Of a DNA stretch of 31,086 bases, positions 3,983 through 20,200 are shown piece after piece. A program made the translations under genes and the position numbers. A model generated the notes under the pieces. The model did no database searches. It was not told where the DNA came from and worked only from the letters and a program-made list of their open reading frames with translations. The stretch comes from Planctomycetota bacterium (GTDB lineage Bacteria > Planctomycetota > UBA8108 > UBA8890 > UBA8898): contig JBFZCA010000003.1 in NCBI GenBank assembly GCA_041308205.1, positions 1 to 31,086 of the forward strand, given 5' to 3'. How positions within the stretch are numbered: the first letter of the stretch is position 1; every line of letters starts with the position of its first letter.

Positions 3983-4116
3983 CAGCCACAACATACCGAG
4001 ACGCGTTGCGTATTGCCTGCAACCTGACTGGCGAGTAAGATCGACCACCCAATGGAAGGCCAAGGCGGTTCTCCCGACCTTCTTCAACGCGAGGAACTCG
4101 AGGAAGAGACACGCTA

Positions 4117-4224: not shown

Positions 4225-4356
4225 AGAAACTCAGCCGACGCATAACAAACCATCCGCATTGTATTTGCGCCCGCTGTCGCCGTCCAGATCTCGGCCGGTT
4301 GACACCGAATCCGCCACGGTCCATGCTGGGAGTCTCCTGCCTTCATTTCCAATGAG

Positions 4357-4434
4357 ATGGTATTGGCTCCGATTCGGCGACCCTGGCGCCTCCCGGTCAT
4401 CGCCCTCGCCGCCTGGATCAATCGTGAATTGCAA
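4357..4434 (+). pseudogene. Possible N-terminal stub of an integrase-core-domain transposase
   Basis: PWRLPVIALAAWINRELQ recalls the PWxLLxxALAGWxNRxQQxVIxYL start of such transposases. Recognition from memory only. Confidence 0.3.
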
Positions 4435-4545
4435 CGCGTCCGTTACGCAATTGCGGCTCTGCCGGCGCTATGGAGGTGGGGACCGGAGGTCTCAACGGCG
4501 GCAATCGCTCGGCATCCCTGCTGTCTGAGACAATCCCCCTTCCGT

Positions 4546-4567
4546 CCCCCCTTCAGGGGAAGGGGGG
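4546..4567. repeat. Perfect REP-like hairpin CCCCCCTTC-AGGG-GAAGGGGGG
   Basis: 9-bp perfect stem and 4-nt loop read directly from the sequence. Confidence 0.55.
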
Positions 4568-4584
4568 AAACGCCGGCTACGGCC

Positions 4585-4600
4585 GGCGCGGACGCGGGTC
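4585..4600. repeat. 16-bp direct repeat, copy 2
   Basis: Identical to 3967-3982. Confidence 0.6.
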
Positions 4601-4815
4601 GAAATCTATGCCGAGAGTATGCCACAGCGCCGGCGGTGTCAGCGCCTATCTTGGCGTCCAATCAGCGCAACGAAAGTACAGAGTACAAGTCAGCGGCCTC
4701 ACGGAGACCCGCGAGTGAAGGACCAGACTCCTCCGGGATTCCGTTCACGGCCAATAGTGAGCCCTGGCTCCGTGGGTACTATAATGATTGATAGAGACGT
4801 GCTCCTGGTAAGATC

Positions 4816-4965
4816 ATGAATCAACAGATTTATGTGACGCTGGATGCCGACGGGGTCATGCGGGTGGCGCAGACGCGTGTCATGCGTGACTCCGTTGTCG
4901 CCGCTTTCGAGGAGGGGCATTCGGCCGAGACGATCCAGCAGCAGTATCCGGTGCCGCTGCGGTGA
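4816..4965 (+). pseudogene. DUF433-family (putative antitoxin) fragment
   Basis: Manual translation MNQQIYVTLDADGVMRVAQTRVMRDSVVAAFEEGHSAETIQQQYPVPLR* fits the DUF433 pattern RVxxTRVxxxxVxxxxxxGxSxExIxxxYP. The usual LxxxxVxxAxxY tail is missing. Confidence 0.7.
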
Positions 4966-5008
4966 AGCGCACGCTCCCGCCCAGCGTCTTGATGCGGCCG
5001 TTCGCGCC

Positions 5009-5188
5009 TCATAGCTCCCGCAGTCTGGCGAGGTCACGACCGGGCCTGTCCTTCACAGGGGCAGGCCCGTCCTCTATCTCACCTTCGCCCGTTGATCTCT
5101 CACCGATCCTGGCTAAACGCCGTCTCGTCCTCCCCTTGCCGCCGGTCCTCTTCGGGGCCTGCTCTTGGGACTCGTTCTTCGCCGACAT
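5009..5188 (-). CDS. Small hypothetical protein (59 aa)
   Basis: AAGGAGG (5201-5195) lies 6 nt before ATG 5188. MSAKNESQEQAPKRTGGKGRTRRRLARIGERSTGEGEIEDGPAPVKDRPGRDLARLREL*. No recognisable family. Confidence 0.3.
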   Translation of the reverse strand: MSAKNESQEQAPKRTGGKGRTRRRLARIGERSTGEGEIEDGPAPVKDRPGRDLARLREL

Positions 5189-5263
5189 GACAAACCTCCT
5201 TGAAAAAGGGTTGCTGCTGCCGACTCGACGAGCCCAACGTGCTTCCGACTGTTATCCCGCCTT

Positions 5264-5482
5264 AGGGGCCGCGCAACAATAACTTCACATTTTGGTCTCC
5301 CTGGCTCGCGCCATCTTCGACCGCTCCTCAATCTCGAATTCCTCGACGTATCTTCACTACGCCTGCGGATTCGCTCAATCGTCGCGGCCGCGACGCGACC
5401 GAATAGGGAGCGTTGCCCCCGTTCCCACAGACGGTGTGTGCTCCAGGGGCCCAAAACGAAAAGTTATTGTTGCGCGGCCCCT
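5264..5482. mobile_element. Non-autonomous MITE-like element, 219 bp
   Basis: Perfect 22-bp terminal inverted repeats AGGGGCCGCGCAACAATAACTT (5264-5285) and AAGTTATTGTTGCGCGGCCCCT (5461-5482), extending imperfectly to about 40 bp. Internal 16-bp palindrome CGTCGCGGCCGCGACG at 5380-5395. No transposase inside. Confidence 0.75.
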
Positions 5483-5586
5483 TTGCGCGGTTTCCGGCGG
5501 CGGTCCGATGGAGAGCGCCGTTCGTCGCGTCATCAACATGCGCCTCAAGGGACCCGGCATCGCGCACCGCGCGCCCGGTCGCGGCG

Positions 5587-6966
5587 TCACGATTCCTCCG
5601 CCTCCCGCACGCGCGGCAGCGGAATCGTCACGGTGAAGGTGCTGCCCTTGGACACGACGCTCCGGACGGCGATTGCGCCGCCGAGCTCGCGCGCGATCCT
5701 GTCCGCGATCGCCAGGCCGAGGCCCGTGCCGACGGCGACGTGGGCCTTCGCGTTCGGGGCCCGGTAGAACTCGCCGAAGATCTTGTCGATGGCGTCGGGG
5801 GGGATGCCGATCCCCGTGTCCCGCACGGCGACCGTGGCCGTGTCGCCGTCGGCGGCGGCAACGACCTCGACCTCGCCGCCGGCGGGCGTGTACTTGAGCG
5901 CGTTCTCGACCAGCACCGTGAAGAGCTGCTCCACCTTGCGGCGGACCGCGGGAATCGCGGGCAGCGCCGGGGCGAGCCTGGCTGAGAGCGTGACGCATCG
6001 CTCCTGGGCCGCGTTCTGCAGCCCCTCCACGACATCATCGAGAAGGGGTCCGAGTGCCAGCGACTCGCAGGCTTCGTCGCCGCGGGATTCCCGGATGCGC
6101 GTGAGGCTCAGCATGTCGTTGATCAAGGCGAGCATGTGCTGCGCCTGGCGGTCCGCCCGCCCGACGAGCTCCGTCACCTTCTCGGGTTCCTCGGCGTACC
6201 CCGAGGTCACGAGCCGCAGCACGGTCTGGATCGAGGTGAGCGGCGCGCGCAACTGATGGCTGACGAGCCGGAAGAAGGCGTTGCGCTCCTCGTCGAGCTT
6301 CTCGAGCCGCGCGTGCGCCGCCTCGATCTCGGCGGCGTGGCGCTCGAGCTGCGCGCGCGCCTCGTCGAGCTCGCGCTCGCGGTGCCTGAGGCGGTTCGCG
6401 ATGCCGCCCACGAGCACGGCGACGGTGAGCAGCGTGATGCCCGTGACGCTGCCGACGGTCAGGAGGTGGAGCGTCGCGTCGATGGGGCGCGCGGCCTCCT
6501 CGTCGATGGGCGGGTGGTGCCGCAGCCAGCCGTGCGACTCGGCCACGCCCATGACGATCAGGGAGGCGAGCACCCAGAAGGCGTGGATGACCGTCGTGCG
6601 CCGGCCGACGAGGAGCCCGCAGATGACGAGGTGGAAGACGAAGAACGCGAGGAACGGGCTCAGGGGGCCGCCCGTGAAGTGGATCCACACGAGCAGGGCG
6701 AAGAAATCGGCGCCGATCTGAGCGTTGACGTAGGCGTGAATTCGCCGCAAGTCGACGGGCGGGGCGAGCAGCCGCGGCGCCGCGAGCGCGAAGAGCACGT
6801 TGTACGCCGCGACCGCGATGGCGATGCCGAGGAGCGGCCACGGCGGATAGGTCAGGCCGATCGCATGAGCGGCCAGCGCGCCCAGAGCCATGATGCCGGC
6901 GACGATCCACCTGACACGAACGAGCCAGCGGCTCCGAAAGACGAGCTCTTCTTCGCGTGGAATCAT
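5587..6966 (-). CDS. Membrane-bound sensor histidine kinase (HisKA + HATPase_c), RegB/PrrB-like membrane domain
   Basis: Several hydrophobic segments, H-box HQLRAPLTSI, N-box ENALKYT, DTGIGI, GTGLGLAI. Start placed at MIPREE (6966); the ORF is open to 7041. Confidence 0.9.
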   Translation of the reverse strand: MIPREEELVFRSRWLVRVRWIVAGIMALGALAAHAIGLTYPPWPLLGIAIAVAAYNVLFALAAPRLLAPPVDLRRIHAYVNAQIGADFFALLVWIHFTGGPLSPFLAFFVFHLVICGLLVGRRTTVIHAFWVLASLIVMGVAESHGWLRHHPPIDEEAARPIDATLHLLTVGSVTGITLLTVAVLVGGIANRLRHRERELDEARAQLERHAAEIEAAHARLEKLDEERNAFFRLVSHQLRAPLTSIQTVLRLVTSGYAEEPEKVTELVGRADRQAQHMLALINDMLSLTRIRESRGDEACESLALGPLLDDVVEGLQNAAQERCVTLSARLAPALPAIPAVRRKVEQLFTVLVENALKYTPAGGEVEVVAAADGDTATVAVRDTGIGIPPDAIDKIFGEFYRAPNAKAHVAVGTGLGLAIADRIARELGGAIAVRSVVSKGSTFTVTIPLPRVREAEES

Positions 6967-7107
6967 ACGGCGTTCACGGGTCGCAGCGTCATGCCGGCGG
7001 GCACGACGGGGTTCACTCGCCTGCGCCTGAGACGCCTTCAACTGTAATTGATCGGAGAGACGAAGGCAATTCGGCGCACGCCCCGATTCCGCGGGCCGCC
7101 AATAATA

Positions 7108-7128
7108 TCATTACAAGGATGTAATTGA
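7108..7128. promoter_or_regulatory. Operator-like dyad TCATTACA-AGGA-TGTAATTGA; second TGTAATTGA copy at 7043-7051
   Basis: TTACA-N4-TGTAA palindrome and a repeated 9-mer in an AT-rich patch of the divergent intergenic region. Confidence 0.4.
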
Positions 7129-7149
7129 CTTGATGCCGGCCCTCCGCTG

Positions 7150-7164
7150 TGGCACCATGGTTGT
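7150..7164 (+). promoter_or_regulatory. Possible sigma-54 -24/-12 promoter for the hdr operon
   Basis: TGGCAC-CATGG-TTGT has correct spacing but GT instead of GC at -13/-12. Confidence 0.4.
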
Positions 7165-7178
7165 GAAAAGAATCACGA
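7161..7178. promoter_or_regulatory. Rex- or CRP-type operator
   Basis: TTGTGAAAAGAATCACGA has 2 mismatches to Rex TTGTGAA-N4-TTCACAA and 1 mismatch to CRP TGTGA-N6-TCACA. Confidence 0.55.
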
Positions 7179-7290
7179 ATCAAGGCGGCAGGCGATGGCC
7201 CGCCGCCTAAGGGCGCGGACGCGTGGGGTTGGCGCCGTTGTCGGAGACAGTGGAGCTGCTGAAGCGAATTCGAATGCGGGAGGAATGCCC

Positions 7291-7863
7291 ATGTATGCTC
7301 CTCCGGTCGATGAGCGGTTTCTCGCGGAAATAGGATCCCTGCCCGGCGGCGACCGAGTGGCGCAGTGCATCCAGTGCGGCTCTTGTTCGGGGAGCTGTCC
7401 GACCGCGCACTGGATGGATCACTCCCCGCGCCGGATCTTCGCGCTGATCCGCTGCGGCATGCGCGACGAGGTCCTGCGCTCGAACACGCCCTGGACGTGC
7501 GCGTCCTGCTACACCTGCTACGTGCGCTGCCCGAAGGACATCAAGATCACCGATGTGATGTACGCCTTGAAGCGGCTCGCGATCAAGAACGGAAAAACCC
7601 CGCCGGAGGCGCGGCCCGCGCGCGTCATGGCCGAATCGTTCGTTGCGAACGTCCACCGGTTCGGCCGGAACTGGGAGACCGGCCTCATGCGGAGCATGTA
7701 TCTGAAGGGAACGCGGTTCGGCAAGCTCTTCCGCGATCTGCCGCTCGGCATGAGACTCTTTCGTCTCGGCCGCATGCCGCTGCGTCCCACGCGCATCAGC
7801 CCCGAAGGCCGCGCACAGATCGAGAAGATCATCAACGCCGTCGAAGAGACAGGCGGTTTGTAA
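7291..7863 (+). CDS. hdrC: Heterodisulfide reductase subunit C-like 2x[4Fe-4S] protein
   Basis: CIQCGSCSGSCP and CASCYTCYVRCP. GGAGG lies 7 nt before ATG 7291. Directly precedes hdrB. Confidence 0.88.
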   Translation: MYAPPVDERFLAEIGSLPGGDRVAQCIQCGSCSGSCPTAHWMDHSPRRIFALIRCGMRDEVLRSNTPWTCASCYTCYVRCPKDIKITDVMYALKRLAIKNGKTPPEARPARVMAESFVANVHRFGRNWETGLMRSMYLKGTRFGKLFRDLPLGMRLFRLGRMPLRPTRISPEGRAQIEKIINAVEETGGL

Positions 7864-7980
7864 TCAACTGCGAAGGAGACAAACACCGCACGGAGAGAAT
7901 CGCCGGGAAGAGAAAAGAACGAAAACCACGCGAACGACAACAACCAGGCCAATCCGCGTACTTCGCGAAGGAGGAACGGC

Positions 7981-8868
7981 ATGGGCTTCGCGTATACCTA
8001 CTACCCGGGATGCTCGTTGGATGCCACGAGCCGCTGGTACGGGCGATCGATTGAAGCGTCCGCCAGGGCGCTCGACGTCGAGCTGTGCGAGCTTGCGGAC
8101 TGGAACTGCTGCGGCGCGACCGCGTACATGAGCGTTCGAGAGCTCATGAGCTTCTGCGTGACGGCGCGCAATCTCGCCCTCGCCGAGCCCTACAGGCGCG
8201 ACATCGTCTCGCCCTGCAGCGCGTGCTTCACCGTGCTCTCCAAGACGAACCGCTACTTCGCGCAGATTCCCGAGGTGCGCGAGAAGGTGAGCGCGGCGCT
8301 CGCGGCGGCGGGGCTCGCCTACGGGGGGACGGTCAAGGTCCGCCACATCCTCGATGCCTTCGTCAACGATGTGGGCGTCGATGCGATCAGGCATCGAGTG
8401 ACGCATCCGCTCGGCGGGCTCAAGATCGCGCCCTACTACGGCTGCCAGATCGTTCGGCCCGAGACCGGCTTGGACAGCCCGGAGTATCCCACGATGCTCG
8501 AGCGGCTGCTCGCGGCGCTCGGCGCCGAACCGGTCGAGTACGAGATGCGCGCCCGCTGCTGCGGCGCATCGCTGATCGTGAGCCGCGAGGACGTGGCGCT
8601 GGAGCTGATCGCCGATCTCCTGCGGTGCGCCCGCGACGCCGGCGCCGAGGCGATCGCGACCGTGTGCCCGATGTGCCACATCAACCTCGAGAGCCAGATG
8701 GCGCGGATCAACGCGCGCTACGGGCTCGATGTCCGCCTCCCCGTGCTGTTCTTCTCGCAGCTCATGGGCGCGGCGCTCGGGGCGGACGAATCCGATCTCG
8801 GGCTCGGCAAGGGTTTTCTCGATGCGCGGCCGCTTCTCGAGCGCCGCGGCGCGGGCGTGCGGGTCTGA
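7981..8868 (+). CDS. hdrB: Heterodisulfide reductase subunit B (two CCG domains)
   Basis: YYPGCSL, WNCCGA, SPCSAC, YYGCQ, RCCGAS, TVCPMC. AAGGAGG RBS upstream. Confidence 0.92.
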   Translation: MGFAYTYYPGCSLDATSRWYGRSIEASARALDVELCELADWNCCGATAYMSVRELMSFCVTARNLALAEPYRRDIVSPCSACFTVLSKTNRYFAQIPEVREKVSAALAAAGLAYGGTVKVRHILDAFVNDVGVDAIRHRVTHPLGGLKIAPYYGCQIVRPETGLDSPEYPTMLERLLAALGAEPVEYEMRARCCGASLIVSREDVALELIADLLRCARDAGAEAIATVCPMCHINLESQMARINARYGLDVRLPVLFFSQLMGAALGADESDLGLGKGFLDARPLLERRGAGVRV

Positions 8869-8884
8869 GAAGAGGAGGAGCACG

Positions 8885-9760
8885 ATGCAGGACACGCCGG
8901 CATGCAGAATAGGCTGCTACATCTGCCACTGCGGCACCAATATCGCGCAGATGGTCGATGTGGAGGAGGTCACCGCCTTCGCGGCCGGGGAGCCCAACGT
9001 GGCCGTGGCGCGCCACGACAAGTACATGTGCTCCGATCCGGGGCAGGCGATGATCATCGCCGACATCAAGAGCCTCGCGCTCGACCGCATCGTCGTCGCC
9101 TCCTGCTCGCCGCGCATGCACGAGCCGACCTTCCAGCGGGCGTGCGAGCGCGCCGGCCTCAACAAGTACCTCTTCGAGATGGCCAACATCCGCGAGCACT
9201 GCGCGTGGGTGCACGAGGAGCGGCGCAAGGCCACCGACAAGGCCAAGGCGCTCGTCAATGCCGCGCTCAAGCGCGTGGCGTTCCACGAGCCGCTGCAGGA
9301 CCGCAAGGTGCCCATCCACCCCGACGCCGTCGTCGTGGGGGGCGGCATCGCCGGCATCACCGCGGCGCTCACGATCGCGGACGGCGGCTCGAAGGTCTAT
9401 CTCGTCGAGAAGGAGCCCTCGATCGGCGGCCACATGAGCGAGTTCGACAAGACCTTCCCGACGCTGGACTGCTCGGCGTGCATCCTGACGCCCAAGATGA
9501 CCGCCGTGGGCCAGCATCCGAACATCGAGCTGCTCACGAACGCGGAGGTGGCCAAGGTCGAGGGCTCGATCGGGGACTTCACGGTGACCATTCGCAAGAA
9601 GGCGCGCTACGTGGACGAGGAGGCGTGCACGGGCTGCGGCCAGTGCTGGACCCTGTGCCCGTCCCGCACCACGCCGCGCAGGAAGACGATACGCATCAGG
9701 ACCAAGTTCGGCGACCAGATCGTGAGGAGGGCGCGCAATGGCGACGAGAACCGCGCGTGA
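8885..9760 (+). CDS. hdrA: HdrA N-terminal half (291 aa), ending after the first half of the inserted ferredoxin
   Basis: IGCYICHCGTNIA, SCSPRMHEPTF, NIREHCAWVH, VVGGGIAG, DKTFPTLDCSACILTPKM, RYVDEEACTGCGQCWTLCP, then stop. AGGAGG RBS before ATG 8885. Confidence 0.9.
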   Translation: MQDTPACRIGCYICHCGTNIAQMVDVEEVTAFAAGEPNVAVARHDKYMCSDPGQAMIIADIKSLALDRIVVASCSPRMHEPTFQRACERAGLNKYLFEMANIREHCAWVHEERRKATDKAKALVNAALKRVAFHEPLQDRKVPIHPDAVVVGGGIAGITAALTIADGGSKVYLVEKEPSIGGHMSEFDKTFPTLDCSACILTPKMTAVGQHPNIELLTNAEVAKVEGSIGDFTVTIRKKARYVDEEACTGCGQCWTLCPSRTTPRRKTIRIRTKFGDQIVRRARNGDENRA

Positions 9761-10220
9761 ACCGGCGGTCGATCTCGCTCCCGCCGAGGGACTCATCAAC
9801 GCGTACGTTGAAAGCCGGGAGGCGACGATCGCGCTCCTGCAGGACGTCCAGAAGCTCTACGGCTATCTGCCGCGCCCGGTGCTCGATCTCATCGCGCGGC
9901 GTCTGGACCTGCCCCGCACGCAGCTCTACGGCCTGGCGACGTTCTACAAGGCGTTCAGCCTCGTGCCGCGGGGGCGGCACTGCATCACCGTGTGCACGGG
10001 GACAACCTGCCACGTGAAGGGCGCGCCGCACTTGCTCGCCACGCTGGAGAGGGAACTGGGATGCCGGTGCGGGGAGACGACCAAGGACGGCCGCTTCACG
10101 CTCGAGCGCGTGAACTGCGTGGGCGCCTGCGCGCGCGCCCCGATCGTCGTCATCGACGAGAAGCCGCACGGGCGGCTCTCGCCGGCGAAGGTCATCAAAA
10201 CCATCGAGCGTTACGAGTGA
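9738..10220 (+). CDS. NuoE/HydC/HoxE-like [2Fe-2S] subunit
   Basis: LLQDVQKLYGYLP, ATFY, VCTGTTCHVKGA, NCVGACARAP. GAGGAGG RBS lies inside the 3' end of hdrA-N. Confidence 0.9.
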   Translation: MATRTAREPAVDLAPAEGLINAYVESREATIALLQDVQKLYGYLPRPVLDLIARRLDLPRTQLYGLATFYKAFSLVPRGRHCITVCTGTTCHVKGAPHLLATLERELGCRCGETTKDGRFTLERVNCVGACARAPIVVIDEKPHGRLSPAKVIKTIERYE

Positions 10221-10237
10221 GACGGGAGTTCGCGCAG

Positions 10238-12268
10238 ATGAAGATACGAAGCATCGCAGACCTTGACCGGATCAAGGAGGAGGGCCTCGGGCTCCTGTAT
10301 CCGAACCGCACGAAGATCGTCGTCGGCACGGCGACGTGCGGCCTGGCGGCCGGCGCGGGAGAGGTGCTGGAGGCGTTCCGCCGGGCGGCCGGCGAGGGCG
10401 GGCTCGACGCCGTCGTCGAGGAGAGCGGCTGCATCGGGTTCTGCCAGATGGAGCCGCTCGTCACGGTCCACCGGCCGGGAACGCCGAAGATCGTGTACCA
10501 CGCGATGACGCCGAAGAAGGCCGAGGCGCTGTGCCGCGAGCTGCGCGAGGGCAGGCTGAGCAGCGCCGGGGCGCTCGGCGAGATCCGGTGCGAGACAGCG
10601 CTCCTGACCGGCGAGGAGCGGCGCTTTGCGGCGAACGGGGGCGGCGGCGCCGGGGCGGCGCTTCCGGATTTCGACGATCTGCCCTTCTACCGCAAGCAGC
10701 TCAAGATCGCGCTGCGCAACTGCGGCTACATCGACCCGGAGGACATCCGGCACTACATCGCGCGCGGCGGGTACTACACGCTCCGCGCGGTGCTCGCCGA
10801 GCGCACGCCCGACGAGATCATCGACGAGATCACGAAGAGCGGGCTTCGCGGCCGCGGCGGCGGGGGATTTCCGACCGGGCGCAAGTGGCGCTCGTGCCGC
10901 AACGCGCCCGGCGCGCGGCGCTACGTGATATGCAACGCGGACGAGGGCGACCCGGGGGCGTTCATGGATCGCAGCCTGCTCGAGGGCGACCCCCACGGCA
11001 TGCTCGAGGGCATGATCATCGGCGCCTTCGCGATCGGGAGCGACCGGGGTTACATCTACGTCCGCAACGAGTATCCCCAGGCCGTCAAGAAGCTCATGCG
11101 GGCCCTGGAAGAGTGCCGCGCCTACGGGCTTCTCGGGGCCGACATCATGGGCTCCGGCGTCTCCTTCGACGTCACGATCAACCGCGGCGGCGGCGCGTTC
11201 GTGTGCGGCGAGTCGACCGCCCTGATGGCATCGATCGAGGGCAAGGTCGGCGAGCCCCGCGCGAAGTACATTCACACGGTCGAGCAGGGCCTCCACAACC
11301 TGCCCACGTGCCTGAACAACGTCGAGACCTGGGCGAACGTGCCCGTCGTGATGCACAAGGGCGCGGCCTGGTTCGCGTCCATCGGGACCGAGGGGAGCAA
11401 GGGCACCAAGGTGTTCAGCCTGGTGGGCGATGTGAAGCACTCGGGGCTCATCGAGGTTCCGATGGGGATCTCGATTCGCGAGGTCCTGTACGACATCGGC
11501 GGCGGCATCGAGGAGGGGCACCGCTTCAAGGCGGTGCAGACGGGCGGGCCGTCCGGCGGCACGATTCTCGTCGACGAGAAGGGCGCGACGGTGAGAACGA
11601 GCACCCCGTCGGAGGACGGCGCTCCCCTCGGCTTCGTCCCGGAAAGCCTGCTCGATCTGCCGGTCGATTTCGACAGCCTCACCGAGGCCGGCTCCATGAT
11701 GGGCTCGGGCGGCATGATCGTCATGGACGAGAAGAACTGCATGGTGGACATCGCGCGCTACTACATCAGCTTTCTCTGCGAGGAGAGCTGCGGCCGATGC
11801 CTGCCCTGCCGCGAGGGGCTCCGCCAGATGGCGGCGATCCTGGACCGTATCACCTCCGGCCGCGGGGAGCACGGCGACATCGAGCTCCTGGAGGAGCTGG
11901 GCGCCGTCGTCATGGACACGTCGCTGTGCGCGCTCGGCGGCACGGCCGCGAACCCGCCGCTCTCGACGATCCGCTACTTCCGCGACGAGTACGAGGCGCA
12001 CATCTACGACAAGAAGTGCCCGGCCGGCGTCTGCAAGGCGCTGATACGATTCGTCATCGACCCGGCGGCGTGCACGGGCTGCGGCGCGTGCCGCGCGGCG
12101 TGCCCCGTGGGCGCGGTCAAGGAAGGCGCCGCACTGCCGGCGCCGGTCGAGGGCGACCCCGCGGCGCCGAGGAAGGCGCGGCTGCTCCACGAGATAGAGC
12201 AGGCCGCGTGCATCAAGTGCGGCGCCTGCGCCGATGCCTGCAAGTTCAACGCCGTGCGCAAGGAGTGA
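10238..12268 (+). CDS. HydB-type (long NuoF) FMN/NADH subunit with N-terminal [2Fe-2S] thioredoxin-like domain and C-terminal 2x[4Fe-4S]
   Basis: TATCGLAAGA...GCIGFC, GLRGRGGGGFPTG, CNADEGDPGAFMDR, FVCGESTAL, NNVET, GGPSGG, ESCGRCLPCREG, SLCALG, CTGCGACRAACP, CIKCGACADAC. Start at ATG 10238 (MKIRSIADL). Confidence 0.92.
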   Translation: MKIRSIADLDRIKEEGLGLLYPNRTKIVVGTATCGLAAGAGEVLEAFRRAAGEGGLDAVVEESGCIGFCQMEPLVTVHRPGTPKIVYHAMTPKKAEALCRELREGRLSSAGALGEIRCETALLTGEERRFAANGGGGAGAALPDFDDLPFYRKQLKIALRNCGYIDPEDIRHYIARGGYYTLRAVLAERTPDEIIDEITKSGLRGRGGGGFPTGRKWRSCRNAPGARRYVICNADEGDPGAFMDRSLLEGDPHGMLEGMIIGAFAIGSDRGYIYVRNEYPQAVKKLMRALEECRAYGLLGADIMGSGVSFDVTINRGGGAFVCGESTALMASIEGKVGEPRAKYIHTVEQGLHNLPTCLNNVETWANVPVVMHKGAAWFASIGTEGSKGTKVFSLVGDVKHSGLIEVPMGISIREVLYDIGGGIEEGHRFKAVQTGGPSGGTILVDEKGATVRTSTPSEDGAPLGFVPESLLDLPVDFDSLTEAGSMMGSGGMIVMDEKNCMVDIARYYISFLCEESCGRCLPCREGLRQMAAILDRITSGRGEHGDIELLEELGAVVMDTSLCALGGTAANPPLSTIRYFRDEYEAHIYDKKCPAGVCKALIRFVIDPAACTGCGACRAACPVGAVKEGAALPAPVEGDPAAPRKARLLHEIEQAACIKCGACADACKFNAVRKE

Positions 12269-12272
12269 TGCG

Positions 12273-14027
12273 ATGGCGGACAAGAGCGTGAAGCTGACGA
12301 TCGACGGGAAGGAGATCGAGGTCGAGCCGGACATCTACATCCTGGAGGCCGCCGAACGGCTCGGCATCTGGATCCCCACGCTGTGCAACTACCGCGGGCT
12401 CACGCCGTTCGGCGTCTGCCGCATGTGCACGGTCGAGGTCGCGCGCGGAACGCGCGTGCGTCTCGTGACCTCGTGCAACCACCCCGTGAGCGACGGCCTG
12501 GTCGTCAGGACCAACACCGAGCGGGTGCGCACGGCGCGGCGAATCCTGGTCGAGCTCCTGTGCGCGCGCCACGGCAAGGTGGGCGTCATCAAGCGGCTCG
12601 CCGAGAACGTCGGCGTGACCAAGCCGCGCTTCGGCGAGGGCGACGAGCCGTGCATCCTGTGCGGCCTGTGCGTGCGGGCCTGCGACGAGATGGCGAAGGC
12701 GAACGCCATCGGCTTCGCGCAGCGCGGCACGGACAAGATCGTGACGACGCCCTACCACGAGGAATCCGAGACGTGCATCAACTGCGGCGCGTGCGCGAAG
12801 GTCTGCCCCACGGGGGCGATCTACATCGAGGGCGCGCAGGAGCTGCGCCACGACGAGCTCGCCCTGGGCCCCAACGCGGCCATCGCCGTGCCCACGATGC
12901 AGGCCGTGCCCAACGTGCCGCGCCTCGATGCCGATGCGTGCCTCCACTTCACAACGGGCGGCTGCGGGATCTGCGCGACGAACTGCCCGGCCAAGGCCAT
13001 CGACTACGAGATGCAGGACAAGGAGATCGAGGTCAAGGCCGGCACCGTGGTGGTGGCGACGGGGTTCCAGGTCTTCGACCCCTCGGTCGCCGAGCAGTAC
13101 GGGTACGGGCGCCTTCCGAACGTCATCACATCGCTCGAGTTCGAGCGCCTGTCGAACGCCGCGGGCCCGACGGGCGGCAAGATCCTCCTGCGCAACGGCA
13201 CGCCGCCCGCGTCGGTCGCGATCCTGCACTGCATCGGCAGCCGCGACGAGCACTACCACCGCTACTGCTCGCGCGTGTGCTGCATGTACTCGCTCAAGTT
13301 CGCGCACCTCGTCCACGAGAAGCTCGGGGCGCGGGTCTACCAGCTCTACATCGACATGCGGACGTTCGGCAAGGGCTACGAGGAGTTCTACGACCGCCTG
13401 CTCAAGGAGGGCGCGCTCTTCATCCGCGGCAAGGGCGCGGAGGTGACGCCGGGCGTGCCGGGCGGCGCCGAGGCGGGCAAGCTCGTCGTCAAGTGCGAGG
13501 ACACGCTCGCCGGCGTCCAGCGCCGCATCCCGGTCGACATGGTCGTCTTGTCGGTGGCGCTCGAGGCGCGGTCCGATGCGCGCGAGGTCGAGCGGCTCTT
13601 CAACCTGTGCCGCAGCGAGGACGGGTTCTTCCTCGAGCAGCACCCGAAGCTCGCGCCGGTCGAGACCACGACCGACGGCGTCTTCCTCGCGGGGTGCTGC
13701 CAGAGCCCGAAGGACATTCCCGACACCGTCGCGCAGGGAGGCGCCGCGGCCAGCCAGGCCCTGAGCCTGATCCTGCGGGGGGAGACCACGCTGAGCGGCG
13801 CCTGCGCGGAGGTCAACCCCGACCTGTGCAGCGGCTGCCGCGTCTGCAACGAGCTCTGCCCCTACAGCGCGATCTCCTACGACGCGGAGAAGAAGGTGAG
13901 CGCCGTCAACGAGAGCCTGTGCAAGGCCTGCGGCACGTGCGTGGCGGCCTGCCCGAGCGGCGCGATCAAGGGCAAGCACTTCACCAAGGAGCAGATCCTC
14001 GCCGAGATCGAGGGGGTGTTGCGATGA
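12273..14027 (+). CDS. Fusion: NuoG/HoxU-like [2Fe-2S]+2x[4Fe-4S] module joined to the HdrA C-terminal half (584 aa)
   Basis: N-part PTLC...CRMC...[26 protein letters not shown]. Then HdrA motifs [76 protein letters not shown] and a C-terminal ferredoxin. Confidence 0.9.
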
Positions 14028-14479
14028 GCCAGGACTTCGAACCGGTGATCGTCGGCTTCCTCTGCAACTGGTGCAGCTACACGGGCGCCGACCTGGCGGG
14101 CACATCGCGGAGCCGCTACCCGCCGAACCTGCGGATCATCCGCGTGATGTGCAGCGGCCGCGTGGAGCCGGCGTTCGTGCTCAAGGCGTTGCGGGAAGGC
14201 GCCGACGGCGTGCTCGTCGCCGGCTGCCACCCGGGCGACTGCCACTACCAGGAAGGCAACTACAAGACGATGCGCAGGATGGCGCTGCTCGGGCCGCTCC
14301 TCGATCAGTTCGGCATCGAGCGCGCGCGCGTGCGCCTGGAGTGGATCAGCGCGAGCGAGGCCGGCCGGTTCGTCGAGGTCGTGAAGGAGATGACGAGCCG
14401 CATCAAGGCGCTCGGGCCGCTGCGGCTCGGGCATGCGCAGGATGCCGAACCGATCGCGGAGAAGCTGGCGCCCGCGTGA
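14024..14479 (+). CDS. mvhD: MvhD/FlpD-type [2Fe-2S] adaptor subunit
   Basis: [41 protein letters not shown] overlap with the upstream gene. Confidence 0.93.
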
Positions 14480-14496
14480 GGGGGGAGGACAGTGCC

Positions 14497-15474
14497 GTGG
14501 GCAAACCCAAAGTCGCGTTCTACTGGTGTGCGAGCTGCGGCGGCTGCGAGGAGGCCGTGGTCGACCTTGCCGAGGGCATCCTCGAGGTCGTCGGCGCGGT
14601 CGACATCGTGCTGTGGCCGGTCGCGCTCGACTTCAAGCTCAAAGATGTCCACGCGCTCCCGGACGGCGCGATCGCCGCGAGCTTCATCAACGGATCGGTG
14701 CGCACCTCGGAGCAGAAGGAGTGGGTCGAGCTCCTGCGCCGGAAATCCGGCCTCGTCGTCGCGTTCGGGTCCTGCGCCCACATCGGGGGCGTGCCGGGCC
14801 TTGCCAATCTGTACGATCGCGCCGGCATCTTCGAGCGCGCCTACGACCTGGTGCCGACGGCAGACAACCCGGGCCGCGTGCACCCCCAGACCTCGACGAA
14901 GGTCGCCGAGGGCGAGCTCAGGCTTCCGGAGTTCTTCAACACGGTCAGGACGCTCGACCAGGTGATACCGGTCGACTACTACCTGCCGGGCTGCGCGCCG
15001 CCCCCGGATCTCATCTTGAACGCCGTGCAGGCGATTCTCGCCGGCACGCTGCCGCCGAAGGGCAGCGTGCTCGCGCCGGCCAAGGCGCTGTGCGACACCT
15101 GCCCGCTCAAGGAGTCCAAGCCCGAGAAGATGGCCATCAAGGAATTCAAGCGCATCGCGACGAGCGCGCCCGATCCCGCGGTCTGCTACCTGGCCCAGGG
15201 CTACGTGTGCCTGGGCCCGGCGACGCGGTCGGGGTGCGGAGAACGCTGCATCAAGGCCAACATGCCGTGCCGGGGGTGCTTCGGCCCGACGCCCGAAGCG
15301 ACCGACCTGGGCGCGAAGGCGCTGGGGGCGCTGGCATCGATGGTCGACACGAAGGACCCGGACGAAGCGGCGCGGATCATGGCGATGCTGCCCGACCCCG
15401 CGGGAGCCCTGTACATGTACGCGCTTCCCAGCTCCCTTTTGCAGCGCAAGAAGATGGAGGCGGCGCATGGCTAA
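14497..15474 (+). CDS. mvhG: Group 3c-type [NiFe]-hydrogenase small subunit
   Basis: WCASCGGC, AFGSCA, LPGCAPP, LCDTC, CLGPATRSGC, CRGCFGP. GGAGGA RBS before GTG 14497. Confidence 0.9.
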   Translation: MGKPKVAFYWCASCGGCEEAVVDLAEGILEVVGAVDIVLWPVALDFKLKDVHALPDGAIAASFINGSVRTSEQKEWVELLRRKSGLVVAFGSCAHIGGVPGLANLYDRAGIFERAYDLVPTADNPGRVHPQTSTKVAEGELRLPEFFNTVRTLDQVIPVDYYLPGCAPPPDLILNAVQAILAGTLPPKGSVLAPAKALCDTCPLKESKPEKMAIKEFKRIATSAPDPAVCYLAQGYVCLGPATRSGCGERCIKANMPCRGCFGPTPEATDLGAKALGALASMVDTKDPDEAARIMAMLPDPAGALYMYALPSSLLQRKKMEAAHG

Positions 15475-16927
15475 GCGCATCACGATCGATCCCGTCACGC
15501 GCCTCGAGGGCCACGGCAAGATCGAGATCTTCCTGGACGATGCCGGCAACGTGGCGAACGCCTACCTGCAGATCCCCGAGCTGCGGGGCTTCGAGAAGTT
15601 CGCGGAGGGGCGCCTCGTCGAGGACATGCCGCGCATCACGCCCAAGATCTGCGGCGTGTGCCCGACCGCCCACCATATGGCCTCGGGGAAGACCGTGGAC
15701 GCGGTGTACCACGTCGATCCGCCGCCCGCGGCGAAGAAGATCCGCGAGCTCATCAACTCGGCGTTCGCGGTCGAGGACCACACGCTGCACTTCTACTTCC
15801 TCGGCGGGCCCGATTTCGTCGTGGGGCCCGAGGCGCCGGCCGCCGAGCGGAACATCCTCGGCGTCATAGGCAAGGTCGGCGTCGAGGCCGCGACGAGGGT
15901 GATCGGCATTCGCCGCCGCCTGCGCGCGATCATCACGGCGCTCGGCGGCCGCGTCATTCACCCCGTGTGCAACGTCCCGGGGGGCGTGTCCAAGGGCGTC
16001 ACGAAGGAGATGCGCGAGGAGTTCATCGCGGCGGCCGAGGATGCGGTCGAGTTCGCGAAGTTCACGCTGGGGGTGTTCGGCAAGATCGTCCTCGCGAACA
16101 AGAGCTACGTCGACCTCGTCGTCGGCGACATCTACCTTCACCGCACGTACTACATGGGGCTCGTCGATGCGCAAAATCGCCTGAATCTGTACGACGGCAT
16201 GATCAGGGTCGTCACGCCGTCCGGCAAGGAATTCGCGAAGTTCCCGCCGAGCGAGTACGTCGAGCACATCGCCGAGCACGTCGAGCCCTGGAGCTACATC
16301 AAGTTTCCGTACCTCAAGAAGGTGGGGTGGAAGGGCTTCACGGACGGCGAGACGAGCGGCGTTTACCGGGTTGCGCCGCTCGCCAGGCTCAACGCCGCCG
16401 AGGGCATGGCGACGCCGGCCGCCCAGGAGGAGTACGAGCGCATGTACGCGACGCTCGGCGGGAAGCCCGCCCACAATACGCTCGCCTACCACTGGGCGCG
16501 CCTCGTCGAGCTCCTCTACGCCGCGGAGCGCCTGCGCGAGCTGGCGCGGGACGAGGAGATCCTCGATCCGCACATCCGCACGCTGCCGACCGCGACGCCG
16601 ACCGAGGGCGTGGGCGTCGTCGAGGCCCCGCGCGGGACCCTGTACCACCACTACAAGACCGACGAGCGCGGGGTCGTCACGGAGGCCAACCTCATCGTCG
16701 CGACCGTCAACAACTCGGCTGCGATCTCGATGTCGATCGCGCGCGCGGCCAGGAAGCTCATCACAAACGGCGAGGTCCGGGACGGCCTTCTCAACATGGT
16801 CGAGATGGCCTTCAGGGCCTACGACCCCTGCTTCGCGTGCGCGACGCACGCGGCGGGGCAGACGCCGCTCATCGTGACGGTGCGGGACGCGCGCGGCGCG
16901 CCCCTCCGGGTCCTCCGCAGGGACTGA
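15467..16927 (+). CDS. mvhA: Group 3c-type [NiFe]-hydrogenase large subunit
   Basis: TRLEGHG, L1 KICGVCPTAH, EAPRGTLYHHY, L2 RAYDPCFACATH followed by a 25-aa C-terminal extension. Adjacent to mvhDG and hdr genes. Confidence 0.93.
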   Translation: MAKRITIDPVTRLEGHGKIEIFLDDAGNVANAYLQIPELRGFEKFAEGRLVEDMPRITPKICGVCPTAHHMASGKTVDAVYHVDPPPAAKKIRELINSAFAVEDHTLHFYFLGGPDFVVGPEAPAAERNILGVIGKVGVEAATRVIGIRRRLRAIITALGGRVIHPVCNVPGGVSKGVTKEMREEFIAAAEDAVEFAKFTLGVFGKIVLANKSYVDLVVGDIYLHRTYYMGLVDAQNRLNLYDGMIRVVTPSGKEFAKFPPSEYVEHIAEHVEPWSYIKFPYLKKVGWKGFTDGETSGVYRVAPLARLNAAEGMATPAAQEEYERMYATLGGKPAHNTLAYHWARLVELLYAAERLRELARDEEILDPHIRTLPTATPTEGVGVVEAPRGTLYHHYKTDERGVVTEANLIVATVNNSAAISMSIARAARKLITNGEVRDGLLNMVEMAFRAYDPCFACATHAAGQTPLIVTVRDARGAPLRVLRRD

Positions 16928-16991
16928 GCGCGGCGCGCCGCCTCAGCAGCCGGGAAGCCGATCCTTCGTGAACTCGAATCCCGCCTCGGGG
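16884..16991. repeat. 108-bp direct repeat, left copy
   Basis: 107/108 identical to 23654-23761; the single difference is 16909 G vs 23679 C. Confidence 0.97.
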
Positions 16992-17104
16992 CAGGGGGGC
17001 CGGTATGCTCACGCGGCCCCGCGCCACACGCGCGCCCGCACACACGCCGCGCGGGATGTGCACGGGCTCGCGCGCGGCGCTTCGAGAGCTCCCGCGCCTC
17101 TCGT

Positions 17105-17133
17105 TTGACAGCCGGAATGCTCGCGATTAGGAT
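17105..17133 (+). promoter_or_regulatory. Sigma-70 promoter for the giant gene
   Basis: TTGACA (17105-17110), 17-nt spacer, TAGGAT (17128-17133). Confidence 0.6.
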
Positions 17134-17280
17134 CGTGGATGACAAGGACGCGAACGAGATTCCCTGCCCGCAGAAGGCGCGCCGCTCAGGCCTGATTCAC
17201 GCAGGCAGCGCGCGATTCCCTGCGACTTTCGCCTCGGCTGTCCATGCGGGCAGGACGCGCCAGGCAAGGAGGGCTTCCCG

Positions 17281-20200
17281 ATGCGCATCTTCCCCTCGCC
17301 AGCACCGTTCCTTCTCTTCGTGCTTCTGGCACTCATCACGGCGTTGCAGGCTTGGGGGGCCGAACCTCAAAGCCGTTCCGTCGCCGAGTGGGCGGCGGAG
17401 TTGCGGGCGCCGAATCCGAAAGTCCGCTCGAATGCGGCGACGGCGATAGGGCGCATGGGGCCTGCCGCGGCGCAGGCGGTCCCCGACCTGGCCGCTGCCC
17501 TCGGTGACGCCGATACGGAGGTCCAGGCGAATGCCGCGTGGGCGCTGGCGCAGATGGGCAAGGAGGCCAAGTCCGCGGTTCCCGCCCTGGAGAAGGCTCT
17601 GGGAGACGCCAACTGGCAGGTGCGGGGCCGGGCGGCGGTGGCGCTCGGAGCGCTGGGAACGGAAGCCGGCGCCGCTCGAGAGGCGCTCCGGCGAGCGCTC
17701 AATGACGGCAATGCAAACGTTCGGGCTGCCGCGGCCGGCGCGCTCTGGTCGGTCACCGGCGACGCGACCGAGCCGCTTCCCGCCCTGAAAGGGCTGCTCT
17801 CGAATCCGGACGCGCATACTCGCAGACAGGCCGCTCAGGCGCTCGCCAGAGTGGGCCCGCCTGCCGCCGTTCTCGCGCCCCAGTTGATTGCCAAGCTGGA
17901 CGACTCCGACTCCGGCGTTCGCCTGGCCGCTGCCAGGGCGCTGATGCCGGTCGGCCGGGAGAACGCGGCCGTGCGGGACGCGCTCGAGAAGCGCTTGGCC
18001 GTGGAGAGGGAACCGGTGGTGCGCGAGGCGATGGCCTCGACGCTCGATCAGCTTCGGAAGGAGCCGGCCTCCGGGCCGGCGGGGCGGCACGCGGAACCGC
18101 GCGAGGCGACGGGCGTCGGCCCCGCCGCCGGAAAAGAAGAGGCCGCCGGCGCTCCTGAGCCTGCCGCCGCGACGGCCGGCGCACCTGCGGAGCCAACCGC
18201 GAAGGCCGGGCAGCCCTCCGGCGGCGGCGCGCCGGGCGCCGAGCCCGCCGGCGCAAGCCCGCCTCGATCGGCCGATGCCGAAGGCGGGGCGGAGGCGCGT
18301 CCTGCGGCAAAGGCGCCCGCGGCTCCACGACAGCGACCGCCCGAGCCGGCGTACGAAGGCAGAACCCTCACCGAGTGGATTGTCCGGCTGGACGGCAAGG
18401 ATGTCGGCGAGCGTCGCTTGGCGTGCGTGGCGCTGGGGGAGATCGGCCCTCCGGCCCGGCCGGCCGTCGGACCGCTCAACCGATTGCGCCTCTATGATAC
18501 GCACGACATGGTGCGGCACCAGGCCGCCTATGCCCTGGCGAGGATACTCGGCGTGGCGTTGGGAGACATGCTGCCCAGACCGCCTGCGCCGGCCAAAGGC
18601 GCCGGCGAGAGCGCGGGACCTCCCCCGGAAGGCCGGATCTTCTACCTGTTCGGAGTGCACTCCGTCTCGGAGAAGGGGGTGGAACCGCGCCCCGATCTGA
18701 CGCGCAGAGACACCACCTACAGGCAGTTCCTGTTCGGCTTCACCAACGGGGCGCTCAACTACCTCGATCTTGCGGAAGCCCACAAGTACCGGGAGGACGC
18801 GCGCACGCGCGGCCTGAACGTCGCTCTACCGCTTCCCGAACTGCTCAAGTCGGAGCCGGAGGCGGAGCGGGACCGGATTCGCAAGGAGTACACGTTCTTC
18901 TACAAGTACAAGAAGGATTATATCGTCCGCATCACCTGCAACCGGCAGACCCGTTACGCCTACTACCGCTGGATCGGAGACGAGTACGACTCGTACGGGA
19001 GCGGATCGCACTGGGCCATGACGCCGGGCAGGTATGTCGCCGAGATCACGGTCTGGGTGCGCGACGGTTTCCGCCTGGACTACGAGGCTCCCTTCACCTG
19101 CACGTCCGACGTCTACACCGCCGGCGGAGATCACCTGCAGGCGGCCAAGGCTCACGGCCCGCAGGATCTCGCCGGGGAAGAGCGTGAATACGAGGCCTCC
19201 ATCACGCCGGGAAACACCGACTACAGCCGCCGGATGTTCCCGGGAAGGAAAGCAGGAGCGACCAAGAGGATCGGCGAGAGGATCGCCGGATTGCTCTCGA
19301 AGCTCGCCAATTGCCAGCCGATGATGCCCGACGAGATCTTGCCGTACATCCGCGAATCGCTTGTCTTCTACGACAAGGCCGCGCGCATCGACCCCGCGGC
19401 GCACAAAACCAGGGCCGGTGACCTGAGCATGCTCGTCGATGTGTGCGCCATGGCGGCCTCGCGCGATACGTACGCCATGGCCATCCGGCTCATCGGCATG
19501 CTGGAGAAGGTGATGGCCGACCCGGAGTCGAAGAGCTCCCAGGCGGAGCTGCGAAACGCCCACCATGATCGGGCGGTCTGTTACATGAAACTCGCGGATC
19601 TGGCGTTGACCTATCAGATGGACATTCCCGCCTCCCTCCGGTTCCGGATCGAGGCGTTGCGATACAAGGAGCTGGCCGACGGGACCTTCGGCGACGTGCT
19701 GCGCTCGATGGATGTCGAGAAGAAGATGACCGAGTGGCCGCAGCCGGACTGGTGGAATCCGGCCTGGGACGAGCGGCAGCCGCCGGTCCCCGCGGAGCTG
19801 ACCGAGGAAGGGGAGGGCAAGGGGGAAGAGGCGGCTGAACCGCGGGAGAACGCGGAGCAGGAAGTTGCGGTTGTGAACGCGCAAGAGCTCGAGGAAGCCG
19901 TCGCCGAGGTGGACGAGGAGCGCGCCGAACAGGTGTCGTGGCTCATTCAATTGCGGGGGCAGATGACCAGCGCCAACGCGGAGCTGGGCGCGGCTCTCGC
20001 CAAGCTGGTCGCTCTCCACCGCGCGCTGCTCGCGGTCGAGCAGAAGATGAGCTACTTCGGGAAGCTGCTGGGCGAGGCCTCGGCGCGTCCCGACGATGCA
20101 GACTGGTTCGAGGAGCAGATCTTCAACGCCATCAGGAACAGCGAGGCGATCCGGGACGATCTGGCGGGGCAGGCGCGCGGCGGCGCGGAGGCGATGCGGG

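Follow-up and report, generated by a model that had tools for sequence, protein, structure and literature searches.

In the methanogen Mvh-Hdr complex, electrons from H2 travel through MvhG and MvhD to the flavin adenine dinucleotide (FAD) of HdrA, which bifurcates them to HdrC/HdrB and to ferredoxin. Two systems of non-methanogens, FlxABCD-HdrABC of Desulfovibrio and HdrABC-MvhD-MetFV of Moorella, tie nicotinamide adenine dinucleotide, NAD(H), to an HdrABC/MvhD core; both differ from the operon described here in that HdrA is unsplit, hydrogenase is lacking and the NAD(H) subunits are unrelated to NuoF/HydB. The role of bacterial Hdr/Mvh clusters has been stated to be unknown (PMC5317091). The only characterised complex that joins an HdrA-type module (BamE, the MvhD-like BamF and the HdrBC-like BamD) to a module of HydBC/Bfu type (BamGHI) is Bam, the class II benzoyl-CoA reductase, called Bam-Bfu in PMC9304861. 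Bam[(BC)2DEFGHI]2 of Geobacter metallireducens is structurally established as a two-module complex, a pairing stated not to have been reported before (bioRxiv 10.64898/2026.04.10.717634). Here, we analyse a 31,086-nt stretch of a Planctomycetota bacterium (GCA_041308205.1, contig JBFZCA010000003.1, positions 1-31,086), referred to throughout as the window, whose positions serve as coordinates. It carries an hdr-mvh operon in which, relative to Mvh-Hdr, HdrA is divided between two polypeptides and a Bfu-type NAD(H)/ferredoxin module is inserted and fused at the cut. We incline, with modest confidence, to the view that its nine genes encode one soluble oxidoreductase in which the low-potential branch of HdrA is wired into a Bfu module serving NAD(H) and ferredoxin.

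Because the high G+C content of the window (~69%) fills all frames with long spurious open reading frames (ORFs), coding frames were chosen by a G+C content at third codon positions of 0.8-0.96 and by start codons following Shine-Dalgarno-like sequences. This gives nine co-directional genes on the + strand from 7285 to 16927 in the order hdrC-hdrB-hdrA(N)-hydC-hydB-[FeS::hdrA(C)]-mvhD-mvhG-mvhA (Table 1). An earlier sequence-only reading had proposed this order, and all of its identities agree with Pfam and NCBIfam assignments. It had begun hdrC at 7291; the operon stands, but 7291 is the second ATG and 7285 is the likelier start. The genes are separated by -23, -8, -4, +4, +16, +17 and +17 nt, with a single wide gap of 117 nt between hdrC and hdrB. 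The largest overlap, 23 nt, places the start of the nuoE-like gene within the end of hdrA-N, and mvhD overlaps the fusion gene by 4 nt. Within the nine-gene block, the + strand showed no sequence resembling a promoter or terminator, and Rfam and tRNA scans of the whole window returned no matches.

HdrA-N aligns to residues 5-258 of Methanothermococcus thermolithotrophicus HdrA (5odc_A, E 9e-95). It contains the cysteines of the N-terminal [4Fe-4S] domain (C14, C16, C49 and C74), the start of the FAD/thioredoxin reductase (TrxR) fold with its GGGIAG motif, and a CxxC pair (C196/C199). The protein ends just past the first CxxCxxCxxxCP motif of the inserted ferredoxin domain, CTGCGQCWTLCP (motif a, C248-C258), after which only a 33-residue tail follows. 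The N-domain cluster cysteines, the CxxC pair and motif a are kept in 16-18 of 18 homologues from operons of the window type (type I). The rest of HdrA lies in the fusion protein, of which residues 159-582 span HdrA2 profile positions 233-640 (E 4e-131) and residues 153-583 align to HdrA residues 228-642 (8rvv_A, E 5e-109; 5odc_A, E 3e-107). This half comprises the linker and motif d of the inserted ferredoxin domain (C223, C231, C234 and C238), the remaining TrxR/FAD fold with a [4Fe-4S] site (C320/332/336/337), and the C-terminal 2x[4Fe-4S] domain (C519-C560). These alignments place the HdrA cut between the two cysteine motifs of its inserted ferredoxin domain. All four HdrA domains are thus represented with intact ligands, yet on two polypeptides where Mvh-Hdr has one. 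The sequence-only reading had called both halves intact, and this is borne out: GGGIAG, LEFERL, CCMYSLK and GVFLAG are all present and the predicted ligands are complete. In two relatives (L180:2634-3386 and L194:1645-2397), the HdrA-N codon that matches C199, the second cysteine of LDCSAC, is an in-frame TGA beyond which the frame continues (LDCST-TGA-ILGPKM). It probably encodes selenocysteine, giving a CxxU variant, which would mark the C196/C199 pair as catalytically relevant.

The N-terminal third of the fusion protein is of a different origin. Residues 4-186 are Fer2_4 and Fer4 domains of the HoxU/NuoG/HydA-N type according to Pfam, and residues 6-186 align to residues 5-184 of 9mqx_A, the type-2 BfuA subunit of a tungsten aldehyde oxidoreductase Bfu complex, as well as to the N termini of HydA, HoxU and NuoG. 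This region holds a [2Fe-2S] site (C38/49/52/68) and a 2x[4Fe-4S] domain formed by motif b (C127-137) and motif c (C168-178); as in type-2 BfuA, the His-ligated cluster of NuoG/HydA (A3) is missing. When the fusion is aligned with unsplit bacterial HdrA, motif c takes the place of HdrA motif 1 and the sequence past motif c is HdrA-derived; therefore, the junction falls within a ferredoxin motif. Across 121 homologues with identities of 57-98%, none of the 28 presumed ligand cysteines of the fusion varies, and BfuA is fused to HdrA-C in every one of the 121.

Together, the four CxxCxxCxxxC motifs (a on HdrA-N; b, c and d on the fusion) suffice for four [4Fe-4S] clusters. In the simplest reading, which draws on sequence and a predicted model, b and c would pair in cis and a and d in trans, so that shared clusters would stitch HdrA-N to the fusion protein. 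In an AlphaFold model of the fusion alone, residues 1-185 form a block with a predicted local distance difference test score of ~71-94, and the modelled BfuA-like part superposes on 9mqx_A at 1.8 Å over 182 columns, using motifs b and c. The linker ahead of motif d (residues 196-215) is disordered in this partnerless model, and the predicted template modelling score of 0.50 leaves the mutual orientation of the two halves undefined.

The remaining subunits resemble their methanogen counterparts, and all six subunit types and cofactor ligands of Mvh-Hdr (5ODC; Hdr complexes 8RVU/9SW2) are common to the operon. HdrC has two [4Fe-4S] motifs (C28/31/34/38 and C72/75/78/82), and HdrB aligns over 270 residues to methanogen HdrB (8rvv_B, 5odc_B) with all ten cysteines of its two CCG motifs matched. 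MvhD and MvhG are encoded together with an MvhA/VhuA-like large subunit with both NiFe-binding motifs, its sequence containing RLEGH (12), CGVCPTAH (62) and DPCFACATH (453), and with 25 additional C-terminal residues to be cleaved on maturation. The closest solved relative of this large subunit is MvhA itself (5odc_F), and its sequence shows affinity to [NiFe] group 3c. The two HdrA halves share ~45% identity with methanogen HdrA and 51-58% with unsplit bacterial HdrA, whose operons in Krumholzibacteriota, Chloroflexota, Bacteroidota, Zixibacteria and others have an identical hdrC-hdrB-hdrA...mvhD-mvhG-mvhA order. Since the host is a non-methanogen, CoM-S-S-CoB is unlikely as the substrate of HdrB.

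The sequence-only reading had assigned the inserted genes to a HydBC-type NADH module, and comparison with solved structures agrees. The closest solved relatives of the HydB-like subunit are the B subunits 9bov_B, 7t2r_B, 8a6t_B, 9n5u_B and 9mqx_B (E 1e-191 to 1e-177), followed by 8oh5, 7q4v and 7p5h down to 1e-150, all of them from biochemically bifurcating Bfu enzymes; complex I NuoF matches at E 1e-108 and over the core region only. The N-terminal thioredoxin (Trx)-like domain aligns in 9bov_B and 7t2r_B, and the C-terminal 2x[4Fe-4S] domain in 9bov_B, 7t2r_B and 8a6t_B. Within the NuoF core, GGGGFP lies at 207 and the B1 cluster is ligated by C518/521/524/564, kept in 15 of 15 type I loci. 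The Zn or 'B2' signature of Acetomicrobium mobile HydB comprises C438, C476 or Thr, H525, C531 and C536, with the His missing from non-bifurcating homologues (PMC9304861). Mapped by hand on 7t2r_B, it corresponds to C501, a Thr, H588, C594 and C599 in the window protein, and its Cys and His residues are again kept in 15 of 15. The C-terminal ferredoxin-docking domain (Fer4 at 606-671, C612-C668) keeps seven of its eight cysteines in all 15 loci and the eighth, C615, in 14. The minimal Bfu bifurcating site consists of B1-FMN-C1 (FMN, flavin mononucleotide) plus B3/B4 (PMC11829005). In the window proteins this site is fully ligated, with the same conservation of ligands. The set of Bfu features thus comprises a BfuB core with B1, the B3/B4 domain, the B2/Zn signature, BfuC, and a BfuA with A1 [2Fe-2S] and A2 clusters, by which the NADH module is classed as the HydBC/Bfu kind and not as complex-I NuoEF.

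A plain diaphorase at this position would change the reading of the operon: NAD+ would replace ferredoxin on the low-potential branch of HdrA, or NADH would act as an alternative donor, and the only bifurcation would be that at the HdrA flavin. NuoF homologues do occur in many non-bifurcating enzymes (PMC5861303), one cysteine has been lost from the N-terminal Trx domain of the HydB-like protein, and electrons arriving at a module on the low-potential exit of HdrA could reduce NAD+ and ferredoxin exergonically with no second bifurcation. We nevertheless regard an uncoupled FMN site as unlikely, given that every feature that distinguishes BfuB from NuoF/HoxF (the C-terminal 2x[4Fe-4S] domain, the His/Cys Zn signature and the BfuC partner) is kept in 15 of 15 loci. 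Loss of the B5 [2Fe-2S] cluster is also compatible with bifurcation, as the C. saccharolyticus NfnABC enzyme still bifurcates with Zn in place of [2Fe-2S] at the B5 site of NfnB (PMC11829005). By analogy, the N-terminal Trx domain of the window protein probably binds Zn.

Close relatives of the HydB- and HydC-like subunits, with the same domains and signature residues, occur in the NiFe-HydABCSL enzyme of A. mobile (7T2R) and in FeFe-HydABC enzymes (8A6T, 7Q4V, 7P5H; E ~1e-190), and the A. mobile NiFe large subunit resembles the window MvhA (E 4e-117). These Bfu hydrogenases, however, lack Hdr and pass electrons straight from hydrogenase to BfuA, whereas the window operon places HdrABC, with its own FAD, between hydrogenase and BfuA. 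Unlike theirs, the window BfuA consists of no more than the first 186 residues and is joined to HdrA.

We then compared the operon with loci from other genomes. The nine-gene order recurs in at least 20 species-level metagenome-assembled genomes (MAGs) from 8 or more phyla; the sequence-only reading had thought similar clusters possible in other uncultured anaerobes. Contigs from NCBI, ENA and two Logan runs, four independent assemblies with the same gene order, encode a fusion protein 98% identical to that of the window. The GTDB species representatives that share the layout, and that show it not to be unique to this assembly, belong to Verrucomicrobiota/Planctomycetota, Ignavibacteria, Zixibacteria and Acidobacteriota (including Bryobacterales), alongside unclassified MAGs. 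Contig look-ups add KSB1, Eisenbacteria and one Pseudomonadota MAG; in these loci hycI follows the operon, and in two of them further hyp maturation genes follow. The other matches to the HdrA C-half are mostly ordinary unsplit hdrCBA-mvhDGA operons, and the N-terminal part of the fusion as a lone query returned mostly complex I NuoG. Clustering at 50% collapses the main fusion family to one representative and yields about ten more clusters with BfuA::HdrA architecture.

These data bear on the reading of the locus as non-functional, be it an hdrA pseudogene disrupted by insertion, an assembly chimera, or two independent enzymes that happen to be adjacent. HdrA is indeed interrupted, and the closest public MAG copy (L081:6091-7951; GCA_003452155.1, DMJR01000117.1) lacks hdrB residues 97-176 and has a shortened nuoE relative to the window and L082, damage that probably reflects faulty assembly or consensus calling of this record. 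The same split recurs, however, with intact frames, own ribosome-binding sites and overlapping stops and starts across the independent assemblies and phyla listed above, the fusion ligands are invariant, and additional gene fusions join the parts. The comparative data already contradict a non-functional locus, which we consider highly improbable.

The same fusions, with the conserved synteny, argue for a single physical complex, as the sequence-only reading had proposed. Besides BfuA::HdrA-C, HdrA-N and NuoE form one ORF in L018:6631-7923 and in L193 (ORF end 5021), BfuA::HdrA-C::MvhD is a single protein of 706 residues (P0135), and an HdrA-N fragment is joined to BfuA::HdrA-C in another of 660 residues (P0143). 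It also counts towards one complex that neither HdrA half could bind FAD alone.

How the two modules would be wired follows from the position of the cut. The inserted ferredoxin domain of HdrA is the low-potential output that reduces external ferredoxin (bioRxiv 10.64898/2026.04.10.717634); because the cut lies in this domain, the Bfu module would lie on the output side, where the HdrA flavin releases its low-potential electrons. Bfu enzymes have their mid-potential route along the BfuA clusters to B1-FMN-C1, a site that serves NAD(H) and, via B3/B4, ferredoxin (PMC9304861, PMC11829005). With a BfuA-like domain attached precisely at the inserted ferredoxin domain, the low-potential branch of HdrA would be wired into this mid-potential route.

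In the proposed complex, the HdrA halves would re-form the FAD/TrxR fold, and motif a of HdrA-N and motif d of the fusion would jointly bind two inserted-domain clusters across two polypeptides. These clusters would continue into the BfuA cluster chain and from there to the BfuB [4Fe-4S]-FMN-BfuC [2Fe-2S] site. H2 would be oxidised at MvhA, and its electrons would reach the HdrA FAD via MvhG and MvhD, as in methanogen Mvh-Hdr. Bifurcation at the FAD would send one electron via HdrC to the non-cubane clusters of HdrB and on to a disulfide-type acceptor; the low-potential electron would enter the Bfu module, so that free ferredoxin is probably not the direct acceptor of this branch. The two outlets of the Bfu module would then be its FMN, for electrons to NAD+, and the HydB-like C-terminal domain, for those to ferredoxin. 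The net reaction, probably reversible, would be 4 H2 + 2 RSSR + NAD+ + 2 Fd(ox) -> 4 RSH + NADH + 2 Fd(red), where Fd is ferredoxin and RSSR and RSH are a disulfide and its thiol.

With potentials of -414 mV for H2, ~-280 mV for NAD, ~-500 mV for ferredoxin and -140 mV for the heterodisulfide (PMC9304861), illustrative arithmetic gives plain Mvh-Hdr a mean acceptor potential of -320 mV and an equilibrium H2 pressure of ~66 Pa, against -265 mV and ~1 Pa for the reaction above. More tentatively, the low-potential electron of the HdrA FAD may run along the fused cluster wire to the Bfu FMN/FeS site and be split again between NAD+ and ferredoxin. Such a cascade would be a four-substrate enzyme (H2, disulfide, NAD+ and ferredoxin) with which non-methanogenic sediment bacteria could use H2 at ~1 Pa; we hold it to be possible, somewhat short of probable.

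Several points weigh against a single complex wired in this way. We infer the direction of flow, the stoichiometry, the coupling at either flavin and the HdrB substrate. If the HdrA branch lies at or below -500 mV, a second bifurcation would be thermodynamically unnecessary and the module could be a plain NAD+ reductase. Three of the four canonical cysteines (C34, C65 and C69) are present in the Trx domain at the HydB-like N terminus, whereas most other type I members have four. The four motifs may pair differently, as a+b and c+d, given that motif c also aligns at HdrA motif 1. The window proteins score too low for the curated NCBIfam cutoffs of the methanogen Hdr/Vhu equivalogs; MvhA, for instance, gets 416 bits from the VhuA model, whose cutoff is 800. 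GTDB scans found no isolate with a window-type operon, every carrier found being a MAG. In a neighbour-joining tree of the HdrA C-half, which carries no support values, the split forms fall mostly, but not cleanly, into one clade, which takes in unsplit Krumholzibacteriota and leaves out L018 and the Ignavibacteria split form L002.

The sequence-only reading had cited Bam as a precedent. The co-occurrence of HdrA with NuoEFG-like subunits holds, and the Bam BfuA homologue is also type 2 (A1, A2 and A4 clusters only), like the BfuA-like domain of the window; the wiring, however, differs. Electrons from the Bfu module of Bam reach the HdrA flavin on its input side, by way of BamI, the C-terminal ferredoxin domain and BamF, and the inserted ferredoxin domain outputs to the tungsten subunits, whereas here a [NiFe]-hydrogenase occupies the input side and the Bfu module is fused to the inserted ferredoxin domain. 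BamE is a fused HdrA dimer and the distal cluster of BamD is degenerate, while the window has a single split HdrA and a complete HdrB; BamI is a separate protein, while the BamI-like domain of the window is fused to HdrA-C. No gene for BamBC (AOR-type or BamC) is present in the operon or the window. Identity with the Bam complex was rejected on the lack of BamBC, the single split HdrA and the placement of the Bfu module on the other side of the flavin.

The Bam comparison also suggests that the operon might run in reverse, with the Bfu module confurcating NADH and reduced ferredoxin into HdrA, so that H2 is evolved as a fermentative outlet for reductant or the HdrB substrate is reduced by NADH/ferredoxin, with the hydrogenase as a valve. 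In Bam, the HdrA-type BamE receives its electrons from the confurcating, HydBC-type BamGH, and Bfu and Nfn reactions are reversible. HydABC enzymes often evolve H2, the insert seems to derive from a HydABC operon, and some relatives keep a HydS-like sensor set. The hosts, moreover, are mostly heterotrophs with sulfatases and sugar oxidoreductases. Set against this, the Bam Bfu module enters on the input side, by way of the MvhD-like adaptor and the C-terminal ferredoxin domain, where the window operon has MvhD-MvhGA, its own Bfu module being on the output domain. For H2 to be evolved, a thiol would have to be oxidised at HdrB at the same time, and no thiol source is evident. The closest solved relative of MvhA, in addition, is an H2-oxidising methanogen MvhA. 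We give reverse operation a low probability and retain the H2-oxidising complex as the preferred reading.

As to origin, the split operon is best seen as an unsplit bacterial hdrCBA-mvhDGA operon with a nuoE-nuoF-hydA(N) cassette of the HydABC/Bfu type inserted into hdrA. Four loci (L003, L004, L173 and L179) have ~4 kb between hdrA-N and nuoE. In L003:1673-5117, this space holds five genes: a HATPase, a HydS-like sensory [FeFe]-hydrogenase (Fe_hyd_lg_C plus FeS), DRTGG, PHP and a second HATPase. We take this to be the typical accessory set of HydABC operons, and its retention suggests a HydABC-type operon as the source of the insert. Other loci vary the core. The Dehalococcoidia locus L167:4504-18008 has the split core with a molybdopterin (formate-dehydrogenase-like) subunit in place of the hydrogenase genes, followed by a second, unsplit hdrA and hdrCB. 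In L167 and in L007:4776-7955 (Zixibacteria), NuoF is fused at its C terminus to a GltD/NfnB-like Fer4_20 plus Pyr_redox_2 domain (~1045-1059 residues), and L005 and L006 have NuoF ORFs of similar length to the L007 fusion. L018 is without nuoF, and meaB follows.

Two further arrangements were seen. A type II family has the order short hdrA fragment, nuoE, nuoF, truncated BfuA::HdrA-like, hdrA-like and mvhD (L174, L176, L178, L181-L183, L185, L187-L189, L191, L196, L197, L199, L010 and L080). It is common in Desulfobacterales and Spirochaetia, occurs also in one Altiarchaeales and another archaeal genome, and is possibly nearer to Bam. In L088:2964-9279, L205 and L198, an unsplit hdrA-mvhD adjoins a separate nuoE-nuoF-bfuA; these loci may be unfused relatives or intermediates of the fused design.

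The flanks of the operon differ even between close relatives. Nucleotide identity with L081/L082 is ~95% over 5481-16937, and both flanks differ beyond this block, which includes a divergent sensor histidine kinase gene (Table 1); as part of this conserved block, the kinase is a possible regulator of the operon. In the intergenic region between hdrC and the kinase, ~120 nt before hdrC, the + strand at 7150-7164 reads TGGCACCATGGTTGT, one mismatch from the sigma-54 consensus TGGCAC-N5-TTGC, a kind of match expected by chance in the window. Sigma-54 activators adjoin the operon in L165 and L166. Upstream of the kinase, 3950-5590 is a ~1.6-kb segment of lower G+C (0.61 against ~0.69) with no convincing ORF, tRNA or Rfam match, of which the last ~110 nt alone (from 5481) is common to close relatives; these have an SSF transporter and a RelB/ParE pair there instead. 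Directly downstream of mvhA, 10.6 kb (16938-27536) is missing from the ~95%-identical L081-L083, where ~1.1 kb with DUF6922 and AbiEii genes is found. This difference is a strain-level insertion or deletion.

Table 1 Features of the operon and its flanks, with window positions, strand and the matches that support each assignment.
Feature	Positions	Strand	Basis or context
hdrC	7285-7863	+	Fer4_8/Fer4_17; TIGR03290 CoB-CoM-SS_C E 8e-26, under curated cutoff
hdrB	7981-8868	+	PF02754 twice; TIGR03288 E 8e-60
hdrA N-half, 291 aa	8885-9760	+	HdrA2 profile positions 1-257 of 777, E 4e-115
nuoE/hydC(bfuC)-like, thioredoxin-like [2Fe-2S] subunit	9738-10220	+	PF01257 E 1e-48; HoxE/NuoE NCBIfam models
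nuoF/hydB(bfuB)-like FMN/NAD(H) subunit, 676 aa	10238-12268	+	PF01512 + PF10589 + C-terminal 2x Fer4
FeS::hdrA-C fusion gene	12273-14027	+	Fer2_4 + Fer4, then HdrA2 profile match
Fusion, N-terminal third, type-2 BfuA/HydA-N/NuoG-N-like	12273-12830	+	Fer2_4 + Fer4
Fusion, C-terminal two thirds, HdrA C-half	12831-14027	+	Alignment to 8rvv_A, 5odc_A
mvhD, [2Fe-2S] adaptor between hydrogenase and HdrA	14024-14479	+	PF02662 FlpD E 1.5e-56; C-terminal MvhD part of HdrA2 profile
mvhG, [NiFe]-hydrogenase small subunit	14497-15474	+	PF01058; VhuG model E 8e-60, under curated cutoff
mvhA, [NiFe]-hydrogenase large subunit	15467-16927	+	VhuA model E 9e-125; 5odc_F E 1e-120
Sensor histidine kinase	5587-7041	-	HisKA + HATPase_c + PilS-like transmembrane domain; divergent from operon
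HEAT-repeat protein, 2123 aa	17281-23652	+	Segment downstream of mvhA
1167-aa protein	23713-27216	-	No Pfam match
493-aa protein	27044-28525	+	No Pfam match

The design is widespread in uncultured anaerobes and apparently undescribed, although its modules are individually known and Bam provides a two-module precedent. The sequence-only reading knew of no characterisation of this split-and-insert layout, and none was found in the literature searched, nor was a description of it, with a mention in the HdrA review of Appel et al. 2021 (BBA) still possible. The Schut 2022 Bfu catalogue and its supplement list no Hdr/Mvh-linked type but Bam. Both HdrA halves and the '4Fe-4S dicluster protein' fusion are mislabelled or left unnamed in databases. 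Bacterial MAGs often encode Hdr-linked [NiFe] group 3c hydrogenases, for which 'H2 -> heterodisulfide + ferredoxin' is the routine annotation; the split variant points to NAD(H) as a partner.

If the cascade of two bifurcations is real, the family would be the second known dual-module bifurcating class, Bam being the other; it would also be the first to include a hydrogenase and to have its second module on the output branch. It would represent an independently assembled dual-module solution, of a topology different from that of Bam and fixed by gene fusion, with the inserted ferredoxin domain of HdrA as an evolutionary docking and insertion point. An H2 threshold of ~1 Pa, if true, would suit sediment heterotrophs and would make such a gear change worthwhile where H2 is scarce.

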